Positions 2 to 41,143 of a DNA stretch of 64,000 nt are shown here, one piece after another. How positions within the stretch are numbered: the stretch's first letter is position 1; every line of letters starts with the position of its first letter. The DNA is from a virus. Lineage: Duplodnaviria > Caudoviricetes. The notes below the pieces were generated by a model. It had not been told where the DNA came from. It did not search any database and worked only from the letters and a program-made list of their open reading frames with translations. A program made the position numbers and the translations under genes. The stretch is taken from IMG/VR virus record IMGVR_UViG_3300021400_000027, positions 32,001-96,000 of that record; one strand, written 5' to 3'.

Positions 2-3000
2 AGTAAAATAGGAGACCTATCAAAAGAAGAAATGGACGCTCTCTATAACGGCGATTATGATAAAATCACATCTAAAGAAGGTAAAGAGGCTGTAAAAATT
101 TTCAAGTCTGTACCAGAAGAAGGAGAAGAAATAGATTATTTAAAGAGCGACTTAACAAACAATAGACAACAAGACTGGGAAGATGAAGTAAATAGTTTAA
201 AAGAAATAACGTCCAATGCAGAAAAAATATGGGATTTAAGTAAACTAACTGCAAAAGAAATAGAAGCAATAAAAATACAATATAATAGTTTTTTAGAAAG
301 AGTTCCAGAAGATATAAGGAGTTCTATTGATTCTATACAATTATATTTACAATCCTCATCTGGATTGAGCAAAGATGATTATCAAAAAGCATGGGGATAG
401 GTAAATTGGGCTGATTTAGGAATTGAAAATTTAGAAACCGAAAGAAAGAAATTTATTGACGCATTTAAAGAAAGCGGTGCTACGGAAGAATAGGGAGCAT
501 AGGCTTGGGAAGAGGCATTAAGTGCATATTAGAATGCCGGTGTTATTTCTTTAGATTTTAATAACCCTGAAGAAGCACAAGATTGGCTTGATAAATAGAA
601 AGAAGAATTAGAAAAAACTTTTGATGAAGATGTTTCGGTTTAGTTGGCATTAAAACCTTCTGGTGAAAAATTATCAGTAGATGAACTTGAAGAATGGCAA
701 AAATACGCAGATGAGATTGGCGAGGATATTGAGACTTTTGTTGATTTAGACACCATGACAATTACTGTTGATGCAGAAACTTATGAGGAAAAGAAAAAAG
801 AAGCATTTGAAACGATTAATCGATCTATATCTTCACAACAAACTCAATTAGAAGCTCTTGCTAAAGATACTAAATTAGGAACAGAATTAGAATCTGTTGA
901 AAGCATTTTAGAGAAATATGATGAGATTAAATAGAAAAAAGAAGATGGGATTGCTTTAAATGAAGATGAACTTGAATTTTATGATGAATTAACTCCAAAA
1001 ATGGAAACAATAAATTCTCTTGAAAAAACTCGAAACGGAATGATTACTGCTGCGTTGGTTTAGAAGAAAAAAGAATTAGACGCAATAACAGAAGCAAGAA
1101 AAGATGAATATGAAACTTTAAAAGGTTTAAGAGATGCACAAGATAAATTAAATTAGGCTGTTAAAGATTAGACTGAAAAAGTTTAGGAAGCATAGAAAAA
1201 AATTGATGATTAGGTTAAGAAAAATGCAGAAAACGAACAGAAAGCATTAAAAGAAATTAATGACGCACTTAAAGATGTTGCAGAACAAGAAAATACAATT
1301 TTAGAAAAAGAACAAGCAATAGTTGATAAAACTTAGAAATTAAATGATGCATTATATGGAACTGATAATTACTTATCTAAGCGAAATTCTTTACAAAATT
1401 ATTCTGATAGACTTGATTAGCTATCTTCCGCCGCAGAAAAAGCTAAAAAAGCTCTTGATAATCCAGAAATTGGTGATAATGTTGCAGAATTGGTTAAAAA
1501 TTATGGTGAAGCCATTCATCAAGAAATGGTTTATCAATAGGCTTTAAATTAGAGAAAAGAAGATTAGAAAAATCAAATTTTAGGATATTTATAGGGATTT
1601 GGTTCTGAATATTTCACAATAGTAGATGGATTCTTACAAGCAAATTATTCTGCTATTGATAATGCTTAGATGAATGATTAGCTTAAAGACCAAATTTATC
1701 AATACCTTGATGATTATAATAAGGTTTAGAAAGAGATTATTGATGGTGAAGATAAGTATAATGATTTACTTAAAGACATGAAAGAAAGACGTAAGTCTGC
1801 ACTTTCAGATATGGTAAATCTTTAGAAAGATACTGCAGAAATTCTTAAAGAAAGTTATGAGAAAGAAATTGAAGATGTAAAAGAGAAGTATGATGCAATT
1901 AAAAAAGCTGATGATGAATATTTAGACGCTTTATAGGATGCTATTGACAAACAAAGAAAATTAAGAGAAGAAGAAAACAAATGGAATGATTTAGCTACTA
2001 AAGAAAAGAAATTATCTTTAATTTCAAGAGATACGTCTGGCTCTCAATAGAAAGAAACTTTAAAACTTTAGGAAGAAATTGAAAATGATAGATAGTCATT
2101 ACTTGATAATAGTGTTGATAATATTTTAGATACGTTAAAAGAAACTTATGAGGAATAGTAGAAAGAAAGAGAGGAAGAACTTGAATATCAAGAACAAATG
2201 ATTGAAGATATGGACTTTATGAAATAGGCTATGGAAATTATTTAGTCTATGGATGGAAGTTCAGAAAATTATTTAGCTTGGCTAACGGAAAATGACCCCG
2301 AATATTTAGAAGGCTCTCCTCTTGAACAAGAATTATATTTAGAAGAACACGCAAATGATTTAGCTCCATTTGAAGAGTACGCCGCCATTACAAATTCTAA
2401 TTTCCAAAACTATTTAAATATAACTGCTGATGAAGTAAATCAGGTAATGGCTTAGACTTCTGATAATATGAATGAGTATTTAGAGAGAAGTCATTAGAAT
2501 ACTTTAGACAAAGTTTAGGAAGAATAGGATGCCGCACAAGAAGCATTAAATTAGGCTTATGAAGATTTAGATGAAGCTAAATTAAAACTTGAAGAATTGC
2601 ATGAAAAAGTTACCGAAGCATATGAAAATTATGACCAAACTTTAGCAGATGGAGAATAGGATTTACAAGAGGCTTATGAAAATTATGATTAGGTTTTAAA
2701 AGATGTAAGAGATAATGTTAGAGATACGCAAATTGCATATAATGAAGCTATGGAGGCTGTTCATAAATTAGGCATTACAGATGTTTCTGATATGGATAAA
2801 AAAGTAGAAGATTCTTATAATAAATATATTGCTGCTTAGGGCAGTGCTGAGCAAGCATTACTTACTTATAAATAGAATTTGTTTTCTTATGGAACTGCCG
2901 TAGCTGATGTTCTAGATGCAATATCAGGAGAAGCATCTGCTGATACAATTCGTCAAATAAGTGCAGATTATACTAATGCAGAATCAATAGCTGGAGAGTT

Positions 3001-3526
3001 AAATTCACGCTTACAGAATGCAGAAATTAATTTAACTTGGGCAGCACAAAATAATTTAATGGATGAAGCTGCCCATGCAGCATCAGAATTAAATTCAGCT
3101 AGAAATTCTACTGCATCTGACGCTTCAAATTTTAATAATTCAAGTTCTTATGTTGAATTAGTTAATGAAAATGGAAGATTTATACCTAAAGTTAAAAATA
3201 AATATGCTACTGGCGGTTTGGTTGATTATACTGGACCTGCTTGGGTAGACGGCTCTCCAACTCGTCCAGAAGCCTTCCTTTCTGCCGAAGATACTGCTCG
3301 AATTGGTGCGGCGGCACAACTCTTATCCAATCTTCCGTTCCTTAATACTTCTTCCATTACTGACAATTCTTATTCTTCAAATGTTGGAGATACAACAATC
3401 GAAGTTCACATTAATATAGAAAATGTATCAAGCGAACAGGATATTGATGACATGATTAATCGTGTAAGAGACGACATCGTTTCAATGTCAAATCAAATTG
3501 GAAATCCAGTTCTCTTAAATAAATAA
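2..3526 (+). CDS. Tail tape measure protein, C-terminal part (5' truncated by window; TAG=Gln)
   Basis: ORF fragments 32, 644, 2249 and 2879 are all in one frame, separated only by TAG, and end at TAA 3524-3526. Long E/K/Q-rich coiled coil with a C-terminal YATGGLVDYTGPAWVDGSPTRPEAFL motif typical of tape measure C-termini. Lies directly upstream of a Dit-like gene. Confidence 0.85.
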
Positions 3527-28142: not shown

Positions 28143-29405
28143 TTAAATACCGCCATTTAGACTATCCAAATAAGCAGAAGCCTGTGCAGTTAAACTTCTT
28201 TCTATTGTATTCATCTTTACGGTAGCAAATATTTTAGAATAAATAGGAGATTTTCTAAGTTGTAACAATAGCTTTAATCCATTTTTATTTCTAAAAATAG
28301 CACTATCTGCTTGTTTAAAATCTCCGTCAAAGAAAATTCTTGAACCATTACCACAACGTGCAATTAACAATTTAATATGGTCTTCGGTTAGGTTTTGAGC
28401 TTCATTGACAATGATAATTGTATCTTGAAAACTTCTACCTCTAATGAATCCCATAGGAACGATTTCAAGTTGTTCAGTTTTTATCCAATCTTGTACTTGG
28501 TCAATACCAACTAAATCAATAAGTGGACCAATTTGACCTACAGTTTTTTCTAATAATTCGCCGGGGAGTGCGCCAAGTTCCATTGTATTTTCAGTAAAGG
28601 CATTATTAGGCACATAAACAATTTTCTTAATTTTTTCACTTTCAAGTTCTTGAATTGCGAAGTTATTCAGAACGAAAGATTTACCAGTACCAAATTGCCC
28701 ACCAGCATAAATAATAGAAATATCTCGATTGTGTAAAGCATGAAACAGACATTGTTGTTCAGGATTTTTAGGTGTTATCTTATTAATCCATTTATTCACA
28801 ATTGTCTTTTTATCCCACTTTTCACTTAACATTCTTAATTCTTTATTTTTATAAACAAGAATTGCAAGAACAGTATAATCAGTTTCTCCATTTTTAGTTT
28901 GATATGGAGAATTAGAATTTTTTATAATGAAGTACTGATTTTCAAATAGTGGTTTTTTGTAGAAGTCAGATGGGAAACTTTTGTTTTCGAGTATATAGTC
29001 AAGAACGGCACTATATCCATTTTCATCAGCTTCAAGGAAAATTGTTGTAGTTCCTTCATAATCATCTTTCACTCCATATCCAATTACGTCTACGCCGGCG
29101 GCTCTTGCTCTTACTTTTAAATACACGTCATTTGTAACTAAAGTGCTATCAAGAATTTCAGCAACTTTAATTAACTTATCATCAACTGGTATATTTTCTT
29201 TTTCTAATTTTCCAAAGAAATCAATATAGTCCATGTTACGTGAAATCGTAACGGCGGCGCGACGTGCTTGAAAAGCAGTTTCATTATTTGAACTTCTTTT
29301 TAATCCATCAAGTTCTTTTAAAACATCTGTGAGAATTAAAAGGTCTTTGCGTTCCTCTATAATTTGAGGATAATCAAGTAGTACGTTTGTGTCAACTATT
29401 GTCAT
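28143..29405 (-). CDS. phoH: PIN-PhoH (PhoH2/YlaK-like) ATPase
   Basis: IVDTNVLLD PIN motif, GGQFGTGKS, FIRGRSF, NEAQN, DGDFKQAD; GGAGG RBS before ATG 29405. Confidence 0.9.
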   Translation of the reverse strand: MTIVDTNVLLDYPQIIEERKDLLILTDVLKELDGLKRSSNNETAFQARRAAVTISRNMDYIDFFGKLEKENIPVDDKLIKVAEILDSTLVTNDVYLKVRARAAGVDVIGYGVKDDYEGTTTIFLEADENGYSAVLDYILENKSFPSDFYKKPLFENQYFIIKNSNSPYQTKNGETDYTVLAILVYKNKELRMLSEKWDKKTIVNKWINKITPKNPEQQCLFHALHNRDISIIYAGGQFGTGKSFVLNNFAIQELESEKIKKIVYVPNNAFTENTMELGALPGELLEKTVGQIGPLIDLVGIDQVQDWIKTEQLEIVPMGFIRGRSFQDTIIIVNEAQNLTEDHIKLLIARCGNGSRIFFDGDFKQADSAIFRNKNGLKLLLQLRKSPIYSKIFATVKMNTIERSLTAQASAYLDSLNGGI

Positions 29406-29419
29406 TTTATTCCTCCTAC

Positions 29420-29445
29420 AAAAAAGGAGAGGACAAAGCCTCTCC
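29420..29445 (-). terminator. Intrinsic terminator
   Basis: GGAGAGG-N6-CCTCTCC followed by TTTTTT on the minus strand. Confidence 0.65.
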
Positions 29446-29451
29446 ACTTCC

Positions 29452-30411
29452 TTACAGAATCTCTCTAACCTCAGAGAGGACTTGTTCAAGCTGTTCTTTT
29501 TGATTTGCCTGCATTTCAGAAAATTTTAATGGTTTTCCGAACACACGCTCAATAATTTCATTTGCTTTAGGTACTAATTCTCTTTGGATAAGCTGTCCCC
29601 AGAGCACTTTAGCTTCGTCCATTAAGTCTTCAAAGGTTCTTGTGGTATAAGGATTATCTGCATTTGAAGCTTCGCCACCAGAACTAGCAACTTCTTCATC
29701 AATTGCTTCATAAATTGCATTTACGATATTGTCGTAACTAAATTCAACTCGTGGTGCAATGTATCTAAAACGAGATTTTGCAAAGAAACGTTTATCTCCA
29801 CGGAAGAAAATGTATCTCTTACCTACACCATTTTCATCTTCAATTTCACGAATATAGCCAATAATATCGACCATTTTATTAATAATGTCATAAGGACGAT
29901 TAGGTAAAGCCGGTGCAATCTGCTGATATTCCTCTCCCTTTTCATCTTTGAAAGTTTTCTCAGTAGAGTGAGAGATGAAAACAATACCATAGCCGGCGAA
30001 AGTTAATTCTCTAAAGAGAGACTAAAACTCTTTCTTAGCTGTATCATAGCCGCCACCCCAAGGGATGTCACCTAATTTTTCAACACTAGCGTTTGAACAT
30101 ACATATTTTACGCATAAATCCCATGCAGAATCTACGGTATCAATTGCAATATTTTCAAACTTAGCTTGTAGCTCATCTTTCTTACGAATTAACTGATTAG
30201 CAGCCTATTTCCAATCATTCCAGTTTTTAATAGGTTGTACATATACATTATTTAACGCATTTGTACCCTGCTCAAATCCAAGAATAAGAGATTTAGGAAA
30301 TTGTGCTGCTAAGCTGGTTTTACCTACACCCGGCAATCCATATAACATAATATACTTACCTTTTAAGTTTCGAGAAATTTTTTGAGGCTCTAATGCCATT
30401 AAATCTACCAT
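29452..30411 (-). CDS. AAA_24 / Sak4-like P-loop ATPase (319 aa, one TAG=Gln)
   Basis: YGLPGVGKT, IAIDT, IPWGGGY, VFISH, MVDIIGY and AKSR motifs; two ORFs in the same frame joined at TAG 30205; adjacent to SSB. Confidence 0.82.
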
Positions 30412-36937: not shown

Positions 36938-36984
36938 ATTATAGCAAATAAAAGCAAAAAAGTCAAGAAATTTATTCTTGACTT
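36938..36984 (-). promoter_or_regulatory. Fused terminator / sigmaA promoter
   Basis: AAGTCAAGAA-N5-TTCTTGACTT hairpin with T-tract; TTGACT-N17-TATAAT. Confidence 0.75.
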
Positions 36985-37000
36985 CATTTTATTATGGAAT

Positions 37001-37579
37001 TTAATATAAAGGCGAATTTACAATAATTTTTTTACCAAAATTCGCTTGGTCAGTTGTGGTTGTATCTCTAAAATATTGTAAAGACCAATCAATAAGTTTA
37101 AATTCTTTGTTTGCGCCGGCTTGCACCAAGAAACAACGTTGATTATAACTTCCTCTTAAATCTCTACCATCTGTCCTAAAATCTTGAATATAAGGACCAT
37201 CAATTAAAAAGTTAATTAACTTTAAAGTATTTGATACTCCTTCTTTTAAAAGAGTCTCAACTGTATAACCAGAATATATAACAATTTTCTTTTCAGGAAA
37301 AACATTTTTTATATCAGAACATAAGGTAAAAATTGTTTCTCTATTTTTAGGGAAGAAAGGGTCTCCTCCACTAAATACTACATGAGAAATATGAGGATTT
37401 GAAATAGCGTCAAAGAATTCTGTCTTGGCATTATCATCAAAAGCTACACCATAATTACAATCCCATGTTTGAGGATTGTGACAACCTTTACATCTATTAC
37501 TACAACCGCTCACAAATAATGTCGTGCTAATTCCATGACAGTTTCCAGTATCAAACTTAATTAGTCCATTATAATTCAT
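37001..37579 (-). CDS. nrdG: Anaerobic ribonucleotide reductase activating protein
   Basis: LFVSGCSNRCKGCHN (CxxxCxxC), SGGDP, LIDGPY, LRGSYNQR. Confidence 0.93.
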   Translation of the reverse strand: MNYNGLIKFDTGNCHGISTTLFVSGCSNRCKGCHNPQTWDCNYGVAFDDNAKTEFFDAISNPHISHVVFSGGDPFFPKNRETIFTLCSDIKNVFPEKKIVIYSGYTVETLLKEGVSNTLKLINFLIDGPYIQDFRTDGRDLRGSYNQRCFLVQAGANKEFKLIDWSLQYFRDTTTTDQANFGKKIIVNSPLY

Positions 37580-37660
37580 TATTTCAGCTCCTTATTATTT
37601 ATTATAAAACTATTCTAAAGAGATATTCCAGAGCGAGTTCAGATAGATTCCCCTATACAA

Positions 37661-37693
37661 AGAAAATAAAAGAGAGCAGATTAACTGCTCTCT
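37661..37693 (-). terminator. Intrinsic terminator of the large ncRNA
   Basis: AGAGAGCAG-TTAAT-CTGCTCTCT followed by TTTATTTTC on the minus strand. Confidence 0.8.
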
Positions 37694-38249
37694 GGAATTA
37701 ATCTCTTTTGACATTCCGTCGCTTCGTACGAGATGAGTTCCCTTAGACAATCACACCAATGCCTCTAAATAAATAGAGGTTGAAACCGAAAAAGAAATAA
37801 TTGGCTAAGTCCCTACTTACCATTCTCCTAAGTAGAACCGGTTTCGACTTTTTCATGGCCCTCCCCAGCTTTTACAACAATACGTTTGTTGAAGGTTATA
37901 GATACCTTTTTGACGAGAGGGGTACGTTTTTCAAGCACATTCCCTTCACCGTGTGATTCGTCTTCGCCGGCTCACAACACCATAGACGGCATGGAGAAAC
38001 AAAGCCTATCTCCCGACAGTCCTTGTTTCCCTTTTTGTTATCGTGGAGCCGTTTAGAACATTCCTCCCCGTAGAATAGATAACTATTCTAATTTGTCCCC
38101 ACAGGGACTATTCACTTGTTAGCCTAACGTAAAAGTTAGGAGGTAATCACCAGTAGAGCATCTGGCGAAATTTAGCCCACAGGCTAAGCTCTATTTATTG
38201 TGCTAAATTAATGTAGTTTTAATAGAGAGGACCTCTAATTTTTTACTAC
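37663..38249 (-). ncRNA. Large structured non-coding RNA (~590 nt; ROOL-like in size)
   Basis: Bounded by its own consensus promoter and intrinsic terminator; no convincing ORF seen; GC higher than flanks; many perfect hairpins (TTAGCC-TGTG-GGCTAA, GTCCC-TGTG-GGGAC, TAGAATAG-TTAT-CTATTCTA, CTACTTA..TAAGTAG, GAAACCG..CGGTTTC). Confidence 0.75.
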
Positions 38250-38255
38250 AAGTTA

Positions 38256-38284
38256 ATTATAGCACAAAATTTAATATGAGTCAA
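38256..38284 (-). promoter_or_regulatory. SigmaA-type promoter of the ncRNA
   Basis: TTGACT-N17-TATAAT with extended TG; predicted TSS ~38249. Confidence 0.8.
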
Positions 38285-38288
38285 AAAG

Positions 38289-38519
38289 TTAAGACTTTTC
38301 TTCGTTTGTTAGTGCAGGTTTGATTTCTGGCTGTTCAAAAGTAATTTGAGTACCTTCTTTAAAAGAGGTAAAAGTAAGGCAAGTTTCACTTACATCTCTA
38401 TTTTCAATAGACTGAGCCTGCCAAGTTAAGTCTAAAAGTTGTACACCTTTACCTTCTTCAACCTTTCTAATCGCATCCACAATGTTCGGTGTTAAAATAA
38501 TGTCATAAATCTTATTCAT
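38289..38519 (-). CDS. Hypothetical protein (76 aa)
   Basis: ORF overlapping the upstream gene's stop; AGGAG RBS. Confidence 0.6.
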   Translation of the reverse strand: MNKIYDIILTPNIVDAIRKVEEGKGVQLLDLTWQAQSIENRDVSETCLTFTSFKEGTQITFEQPEIKPALTNEEKS

Positions 38520-41096: not shown

Positions 41097-41143
41097 ATTA
41101 TATCAAAAGTGAAAAAGAAAGTCAAGATATTAAATCTTGACTT
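41097..41143 (-). promoter_or_regulatory. Fused terminator / sigmaA promoter
   Basis: AAGTCAAGAT-N5-ATCTTGACTT hairpin; TTGACT-N17-TATAAT. Confidence 0.75.

Follow-up and report, generated by a model that had tools for sequence, protein, structure and literature searches.

In the phage record IMGVR_UViG_3300021400_000027 (Caudoviricetes), a gap of 700 nt lies directly upstream of nrdG, the gene for the anaerobic ribonucleotide reductase activase, and this raises the question of what the gap encodes and how its product acts. The sequence analyzed here, referred to as the window (64,000 nt), corresponds to bases 32001-96000 of the 179,787-bp viral record, which has direct terminal repeats; the full record is designated G000. 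The gap was found to hold a conserved autonomous transcription unit for a non-coding RNA (ncRNA) whose base-paired architecture is under selection. This unit is probably a stand-alone gene for a stable, elaborately folded ncRNA of ~590 nt, which would found an RNA family that has not been catalogued so far. The RNA gene (~585-590 nt) was annotated on the minus strand at 37661-38250 of the window, which is 69.7-70.3 kb of G000, by means of full-length homologues detected with nhmmer (E 1e-162 to 1e-197), covariation and contigs from RNA libraries. The features of the RNA and its neighborhood described below are located on this strand.

An initial annotation, made from the sequence alone, had described a GC-enriched stretch that is bounded by a consensus promoter and an intrinsic terminator and lacks a convincing open reading frame (ORF), and all three elements were borne out. 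The G + C content amounts to 0.40-0.46 over 37700-38199, compared to 0.23-0.35 on either side. The promoter (38256-38284) is of the sigma-70/sigma-A type with 11 of 12 consensus matches and consists of the -35 element TTGACT (38284-38279), a 17-nt spacer, a TG (38264-38263) and the -10 element TATAAT (38261-38256). In the homologous loci L101, L102 and L002, which are introduced below, the -35 element and TGnTATAAT are identical and the spacer differs. The terminator (37661-37693) is formed by the stem AGAGAGCAG/CUGCUCUCU (9 bp including five G-C pairs, plus TTTTATTTT), with a U tract after it; in L002, a U tract occurs at the corresponding position, preceded by another, longer stem. For the RNA, a 5′ end at 38250-38248 is predicted, and its 3′ end is expected within the U tract at 37670-37661. 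The distance from the end of the terminator to the nrdG start codon is ~80 nt, on the same strand, in all homologues.

In total, 56 perfect promoters of the form TTGAC[AT]-N16-18-TATAAT were detected in G000 (e.g., at 36938-36966 and 41097-41125 of the window), which fall into two classes. The promoters of the TTGACAAA class are packed at 155-179 kb and 0.3-0.8 kb, beside the terminal repeat, and those of the TTGACTTT class are located in the replication, nucleotide-metabolism and tRNA blocks. The promoter of the RNA belongs to the TTGACTTT class, which heads the replication/nucleotide-metabolism block, and differs from the TTGACAAA class. The two-class layout resembles the early host-takeover regions of SPO1-like phages, and a function of the RNA during infection appears plausible from its promoter class. 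The style of the promoters and Shine-Dalgarno sequences suggests a host belonging to the Bacillota.

No ORF longer than 56 aa is present in the region under translation table 11. The substitutions in the RNA show no 3-nt periodicity (p = 0.53 and 0.91), and many of its indels are 1 nt long, namely 7 of 12 in comparison with L002 and 5 of 7 in comparison with L102. In nrdG, used as a control, the indels relative to L002 are codon-sized and the substitutions relative to L102 show a third-position excess. A conserved protein-coding frame, which according to the initial annotation would have spoken against an ncRNA, was thus searched for among the homologues and none was found.

Homologues were obtained by collecting NrdG relatives from IMG/VR and a large protein collection and by examining their contigs with nhmmer. 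In this way, four close relatives and one distant sister phage were found to carry a homologue of the RNA at the same position, upstream of nrdG. The RNA is present at full length in L101 and L116 (NrdG 96% identical to that of the window), in L102 (71%) and in L002 (49%), which represents the 178,685-bp sister phage G001; L104 (77%) is a partial contig. The protein P0007 is the same protein as the NrdG of L002. The nucleotide identity of the RNA exceeds that of nrdG in each comparison, with 99.3% vs 95.9% for L101, 94.1% vs 79.7% for L104, 92.5% vs 76.2% for L102 and 72.1% vs 62.9% for L002, hence the RNA evolves more slowly than the adjacent gene. The conservation is unevenly distributed, since the 5′ and central domains are 77-81% identical to L002 and the 90 nt beside the terminator have the lowest value (47%). 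The phages G000 and G001 are syntenic, with ~69 kb being alignable at 64-78% nucleotide identity, and the RNA, which is as conserved as core genes (72% global), therefore looks vertically inherited.

In every homologue the downstream neighbor of the RNA is nrdG, and the upstream neighbor is a 76-aa ORF in the window lineage and nrdD itself in L002. In six lineages with an NrdG identity of 45-53% (L103, L105, L106, L108/L109, L118 and L119), no RNA was found upstream of nrdG; here, the slot is either closed, with nrdG adjoining or overlapping the ORF before it, or occupied by another small ORF. As nrdG abuts the upstream ORF in the RNA-less relatives L105 and L119, the RNA can be regarded as an insertion between the nrdD side and nrdG. 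The view of the initial annotation, an independently promoted, terminated and highly structured ncRNA inserted at this position, is supported by these data.

The distribution was further analyzed with the covariance model R1, which was built from the best-conserved 98-nt core (the three-way domain) and matches only family members. The search set consisted of 50 whole phage records encoding NrdG relatives. Using BLAST and R1, the RNA was found to be absent from 49 other NrdG-relative phage records, and only G000 and G001 matched. R1 gave no match in the RNA-less loci L103, L105-L109 and L118-L120, and a collection of 50,697 phage records searched with the region by blastn (word size 11) contained no match either. 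Nine scans with exact or gapped patterns (six of IMG/VR, one of the JGI metagenomes and two of GTDB species genomes) did not extend the family to a further lineage and yielded only the L002 contig, the contig JAEIGA010010309.1 and chance matches; such scans require exact conserved blocks, so that divergent relatives could be missed. Chance matches were rejected by nhmmer, and six further IMG/VR loci were assumed to be chance matches to a Shine-Dalgarno sequence plus ATG. Within the collections searched, the RNA was found only in one phage clade, to which it thus appears to be restricted.

The structure of the RNA was evaluated by thermodynamic folding and by covariation. The minimum free energy of the window RNA is -179.8 kcal/mol, with z = -4.1 against dinucleotide shuffles, and z = -6.5 was obtained for L002. 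The fold z-score does not distinguish the strands (-4.1 for minus, -4.7 for plus), and the assignment to the minus strand is based on the promoter, the terminator, the G-U pairs and the lower absolute energy. In the consensus of two sequences, 23 of 122 pairs are compensated. The alignment of five sequences has 161 pairs, of which 31 are changed at both positions, compared to 9.6 +/- 2.5 in shuffles, none of 500 of which reached 31; controls with slid partners gave 1-7 double-changed pairs, and 96% of the cells are paired. For avoiding the circularity of a consensus structure, the fold predicted from the window sequence alone was also used: 22 of its pairs are double-changed and still paired in L002, while 1000 partner-shuffled controls gave 5.7 on average and never more than 13. 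Folds computed independently for the window RNA (win) and for L002 share 61 pairs in 10 helix segments. The covariation among homologues that had been proposed as a check is therefore present, with double changes well above the shuffled controls.

The fold predicted from these data comprises at least 15 supported helices; a three-way domain, some twelve hairpins and two helices that close over a long range are joined by long, invariant single strands. Among these elements are the structures that had been noted before, i.e., the 5′ GUAGU/ACUAC stem, both UGUG-loop hairpins and the long-range pairing of GAAACCGG with UCGGUUUC. The 5′ hairpin (38210-38250) consists of UGUAGU...ACUACA enclosing an AGAGG/CCUCU stem; its outer stem is kept in L002 as UGUAA/UUACA, as read by eye in a part where the alignment is ambiguous. 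The central domain (37934-38204) is closed by the long-range helix AGCACA (38204-38199)/UGUGCU (37939-37934), which reads AGCGGU/ACCGCU in L002, with three pairs changed on both sides and all positions paired.

Within the central domain, the hairpin UAGCC-UGUG-GGCUA (38173-38186) has one compensatory pair (C-G to U-A) and occurs in both independent folds. The hairpin UCGCCAG/CUGGUGA (38147-38168) with its conserved 8-nt loop AUGCUCWA is predicted independently in both lineages and is nearly invariant, for which reason covariation is uninformative there in either direction. It is followed by ACCUCC (38139-38144), which is invariant in all homologues and resembles the anti-Shine-Dalgarno core; it might have a functional meaning. 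The next hairpins are CCUAAC/GUUAGG (38123-38140) with three compensatory pairs (CCAAUU/AAUUGG in L002), GUCCC-UGUG-GGGAC (38095-38108) with two compensatory pairs across L104 and L002, and UAGAAUAG/CUAUUCUA (38071-38090) with three. The three-way domain (37968-38051) is 80% identical between the lineages without any indel and has compensatory pairs in each helix; it is closed by the helix CGGCUC/GAGCCG and contains the hairpin AUGCCG/UGGUGU and an arm of 16 bp that ends in the GNRA tetraloop GGGA (38014-38011).

Towards the 3′ end, the helix AGGG/CCCU (37918-37945) is located in a variable region, and each of its four pairs shows double changes in the comparison of win, L102 and L002. The adjacent hairpins AAGGU/ACCUU and CAACAA/UUGUUG (37875-37908) follow, the second of which has three compensatory pairs. 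The apparently unpaired GGGGAGGRCCAUGAAAA (37850-37866) is invariant apart from R and resembles a ribosome-binding site with a start codon, with no conserved reading frame after it. The long-range helix GAAACCGG/UCGGUUUC (arms 37845-37838 and 37789-37782) encloses the hairpin UUCUACUUA/UAAGUAGGG with its conserved 9-nt loop GGAGAAUGG; this element (37782-37845) is found in both independent folds, and helix and hairpin have one compensatory pair each, that of the helix being a C>U/G>A double change in L002 with pairing kept. In the variable 3′ region (37694-37779, 47% identical to L002), the hairpins CCUCUA/UAGAGG (37779-37762) and GGAAUGUC/GAUUAAUUCC (37717-37694) are kept with different sequences. 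Look-alikes of the 11-nt tetraloop receptor and of group II domain V, picked by eye, were rejected, being unconserved or devoid of the defining residues.

Transcription was assessed with public sequencing runs. At least part of a 1.9-kb stretch around the RNA is carried by runs of 11 studies, and the runs examined are recorded as animal gut or bovine gut metagenomes. Four metatranscriptome libraries from three studies yielded contigs that cover the RNA. In two studies, contigs terminate without loose ends at 38243 and 38245, i.e., 5-7 nt inside the predicted start, which is a weak hint that they mark the 5′ end, and the RNA contig of X18 ends at 37668 in the terminator U tract. The X18 strain (bovine gut) is represented by an RNA-library contig only; no more than 5 of its 29 differences lie in the RNA part (583 nt), compared to 24 or more in the next ~450 nt, which are coding sequence. 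Stretches of nrdG are uncovered in X16, X17 and X4 and the contig depth is higher over the RNA than over its neighbors; these two observations were not used as evidence.

Several points weigh against the interpretation as an autonomous RNA gene. The available lineages include only two that are well separated, and four of the five aligned sequences are 92-99% alike, so that nearly all covariation stems from one comparison, the win group against L002; moreover, the consensus structure was derived from the same sequences as the covariation count. Helix 17 of the consensus, which pairs columns 309-325 of alignment A3 with columns 518-534, is disrupted in L002, and near 38051-38046 two mutually exclusive helices are predicted with one covariation each. 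Assembled contigs give no strand, true ends or abundance, RNA libraries can contain DNA, and one X4 contig spans 38307-37559, across promoter and terminator, so that read-through transcripts may exist. Furthermore, each homologue has nrdG immediately after the RNA and on its strand, although the upstream neighbor differs. Right after its terminator, a conserved box (AGGGGAATCTATCTGAACTCGCTCTGGAATATC, 37622-37654) is found in the nrdG leader, which is kept in L101, L102, L104 and L002 and occurs once per genome in G000 and in G001, followed by CUCUUUA (37610-37620), which can pair with the nrdG Shine-Dalgarno sequence UAAGGAG. Between terminator and gene, no nrdG promoter conserved across the homologues was detected.

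These last points would fit a giant cis-acting leader or attenuator of nrdG, in which the RNA senses a metabolite, a protein, a tRNA or the temperature and gates the terminator; the abundant 590-nt species would then be the terminated leader. As in riboswitch and T-box leaders, a structured RNA with an intrinsic terminator is located upstream of the gene on the same strand in all homologues, and expression of the downstream gene requires read-through; one RNA contig extends into nrdG. The box and CUCUUUA may form a translational control element of nrdG. Pairings between the box and the RNA body (UCUAUCU/AGAUAGG, and UCGCU/GGCGA with one covariation) were considered and dropped because they are no better than chance for the size of the search space. 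With ~590 nt and at least 15 helices, however, the RNA is two to three times larger than the largest known riboswitch and T-box leaders, no known aptamer family matches it, and it has its own near-consensus promoter, the strength of which would be odd for an enzyme of which catalytic amounts suffice. The RNA-less relatives simply couple nrdG to the upstream ORF. The segment adjoining the terminator, in which the switch would be expected, is the least conserved one, with a 10-nt deletion in L002 within the 90 nt before the terminator, and a conserved anti-terminator pairing was not seen on inspection, no dedicated test having been run. This distribution of conservation, with the 5′ and central domains conserved most, is the opposite of that predicted for a terminator-controlling switch and favors an action in trans. 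A leader function as the main role is thus considered unlikely, but it is the most serious rival reading, and cis and trans roles could coexist.

The possibility that the RNA belongs to a known family was examined next to this. The initial annotation had left the choice between a ROOL member and a new large RNA class, and had proposed an Rfam search for ROOL, GOLLD, OLE and group I/II introns, in which no family matched. The whole window gave no hit at gathering score with the 4227 models of Rfam 15, and a permissive scan of 37500-38400 (901 nt) gave none at E<=1; the three weak matches at E 1-7 (DapZ, DLEU1_2 and SNORD96) are at chance level. With the ROOL model (RF03087, gathering threshold 99.1 bits), 13 candidates were scored over the whole phage, none with E<=10. 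The positive control, the ROOL RNA of L. salivarius pMP118 (L155; PMC5643018), reached 130.4 bits (E 3e-28) with the same tool and mode. In the reverse direction, an nhmmer profile of the new RNA family found nothing in the pMP118 ROOL locus with --max at E<=100. The GOLLD model (RF01998), including its conserved 3′ domain, was unmatched as well. As no match to ROOL, GOLLD, OLE, introns or any other Rfam model was obtained, membership in ROOL is not supported and a new large RNA class is favored. A description of this RNA was not found in literature searches.

A highly divergent ROOL or GOLLD member missed by the Rfam models would share the size class, the phage origin, the promoter-to-terminator organization and the animal-gut habitat with the new RNA, which is a non-coding 590-nt element of a 179,787-bp phage, and the primary-sequence conservation of ROOL is low (PMC5737381). 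Against this stand the missing match even at E<=10 with permissive filters in 901 nt, the clear score of the control, the empty result of the reverse search and the location far from tRNA genes: the nearest tRNA call lies 8 kb away and the tRNA island ~50 kb. Such a membership is therefore very unlikely. At 29364-29454 of the window (minus strand), a 91-nt tRNA-Lys(UUU) is predicted by ARAGORN, but the Rfam tRNA model has no gathering-level match in the whole window; the prediction is either an unusual tRNA or a false call.

Equally improbable is a decayed or free-standing remnant of a mobile intron or ribozyme. In these phages, group I introns and homing endonucleases have hot spots in the nrd and gyrase genes, with introns in gyrB of L002 and L108, a split nrdD in L002 and L102, and a variable slot between nrdD and nrdG. 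Yet the group I intron model (RF00028) was unmatched in the RNA region and no group II match was obtained, while the introns in gyrB of the relatives (L002:6181-6465 and L108:4650-4933) were detected by RF00028 with 64-65 bits. Furthermore, no gene is interrupted, since nrdG is complete, its alignment beginning at residue 1, and the ORF before the RNA is closed by a stop codon of its own; the RNA has its own conserved promoter and terminator, and it is under purifying selection with compensatory changes over its whole length. That the region encodes a protein or peptide, as small ORFs or as an ORF hidden by stop-codon recoding, is highly unlikely, since the 37-aa ORF (37856-37743) found behind GGAGG-N3-AUG in the window is shifted by a 1-nt indel right after AUGAAAA and stops after 9 codons in L102 and L002 (alignment A3, by eye), since codon periodicity is absent and 1-nt indels abound, and since the stop-to-stop frames, checked for read-through as the phage encodes a tRNA with a CUA anticodon, do not exceed 104 aa with TAG=Q or 90 aa with TGA=W.

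Regarding the genomic surroundings, the gene order on the minus strand begins with nrdD (41069-38949) and continues with a 141-aa and a 76-aa ORF of unknown family, the gap with the RNA, nrdG (37001-37579; Pfam Fer4_12 with 5e-37, and Radical_SAM), a 71-aa ORF, gyrB and gyrA. Both nrdD and gyrB are intact in the window. In L002, nrdD is split (977-1873 and 2778-3278), and an ORF of the HNH/NUMOD4 type adjoins the split in L102. The locus L106:1-2986 encodes an NrdD of 1009 aa, compared to 706 aa in the window, and the difference points to an intein or to the insertion of a domain. The gene for a C5 DNA methylase (PF00145) was found at varying positions around nrdD/nrdG (L101:724-1644, L103:969-1892, L002:4853-5776 and L108:3322-4245). 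As its position varies and it is missing from the slot in the window, the slot can be regarded as a hot spot of cargo exchange.

For the stand-alone RNA gene favored here, the following mode of action is proposed. The host RNA polymerase of the sigma-70/sigma-A type would start at the near-consensus extended -10 promoter and stop at the intrinsic terminator ~80 nt before nrdG. The RNA would be stable and would act in trans through its three-dimensional fold, as has been proposed for ROOL and GOLLD, and could serve as a self-assembling or partner-binding scaffold or as a decoy during infection. As a side effect, the terminator of the cassette would insulate nrdG from incoming transcription or attenuate it. 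More specifically, the partner might be a component of the translation machinery. The RNA might form an RNA-only higher-order assembly, as ROOL and GOLLD do, or dock on the host 30S/70S ribosome, a reading that is regarded as rather unlikely. Docking would use the exposed mimic of a ribosome-binding site (37866-37850), the GGAGAAUGG loop and the anti-Shine-Dalgarno-like ACCUCC (38144-38139). If it took place, the RNA would be a further piece of translation-directed RNA equipment beside ~25 tRNAs, a suppressor tRNA and a tmRNA.

The translation-related RNA genes of the phage were annotated as follows. The tRNA island (L153) is located at G000:119194-125284 and contains ~24 tRNAs, while only 8 tRNAs were found in the sister phage G001. 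A tRNA with a CUA anticodon (amber-suppressor type) is located at G000:119883-119956, a hint that TAG may be recoded in some region of the genome. The tmRNA was identified at G000:136820-137161 (L154:821-1162) with 141 bits for RF00023, and the tag peptide ADYAIAA* was predicted with ARAGORN.

Large ornate RNAs of bacteria and phages beyond rRNA, RNase P RNA and introns form a very short list (OLE, GOLLD, ROOL, HEARO and raiA), to which the new RNA would add an independent family. Its clean transcription unit allows easy transcription in vitro, and its assets are the unusually strong primary-sequence conservation and the fold that is partially supported by covariation. Cryo-EM of OLE, ROOL and GOLLD revealed unexpected RNA-only assemblies, the generality of which was left open (PMC12286853). 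In addition, the locus shows that uncultured gut phages carry RNA 'morons', i.e., autonomous promoter-gene-terminator insertions with an RNA as cargo.

Among phage RNAs, 0.6-1.2 kb intergenic ncRNAs, lnc001 and lnc002, were described for phage K (Kayvirus), a large phage of the Firmicutes type; an early promoter of its own and the highest read count distinguish one of the two (PMC9241854). These RNAs adjoin tRNA genes, in contrast to the new RNA, and a covariation-supported fold was not reported for them in PMC9241854; the blastn search of the 50,697 phage records, which should include phage K genomes, revealed no match. GOLLD (RF01998) is likewise a large ornate RNA of phages and prophages, it is expressed more strongly during phage lysis and has been reported to pull down ribosomes (PMC12286853), and the new RNA bears conserved single strands resembling a ribosome-binding site and an anti-Shine-Dalgarno sequence. 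It differs from GOLLD in lacking a model match, in its size (590 nt vs at least 800) and in not being located near tRNAs.

Together with GOLLD and the phage K RNAs, ROOL (RF03087), which averages 581 nt (PMC5737381), is among the nearest analogues in behavior. ROOL and the new RNA are both phage-encoded, ORF-free promoter-to-terminator units of ~580-660 nt from animal-gut or rumen habitats, with many helices, multistem junctions and a variable internal region (PMC5737381; PMC12286853). Unlike ROOL, the new RNA matches neither the covariance model nor the profile, is not located beside tRNAs, is restricted to one phage clade and is much more conserved in primary sequence than described for ROOL. 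ROOL and GOLLD assemble into RNA-only cages of unknown function, ROOL being a homo-octameric nanocage (PMC12286853). The new RNA is a candidate for a new family within a known kind, the large structured phage RNAs of unknown function, and differs from ROOL and GOLLD in its genomic context, a nucleotide-metabolism block instead of a tRNA island.

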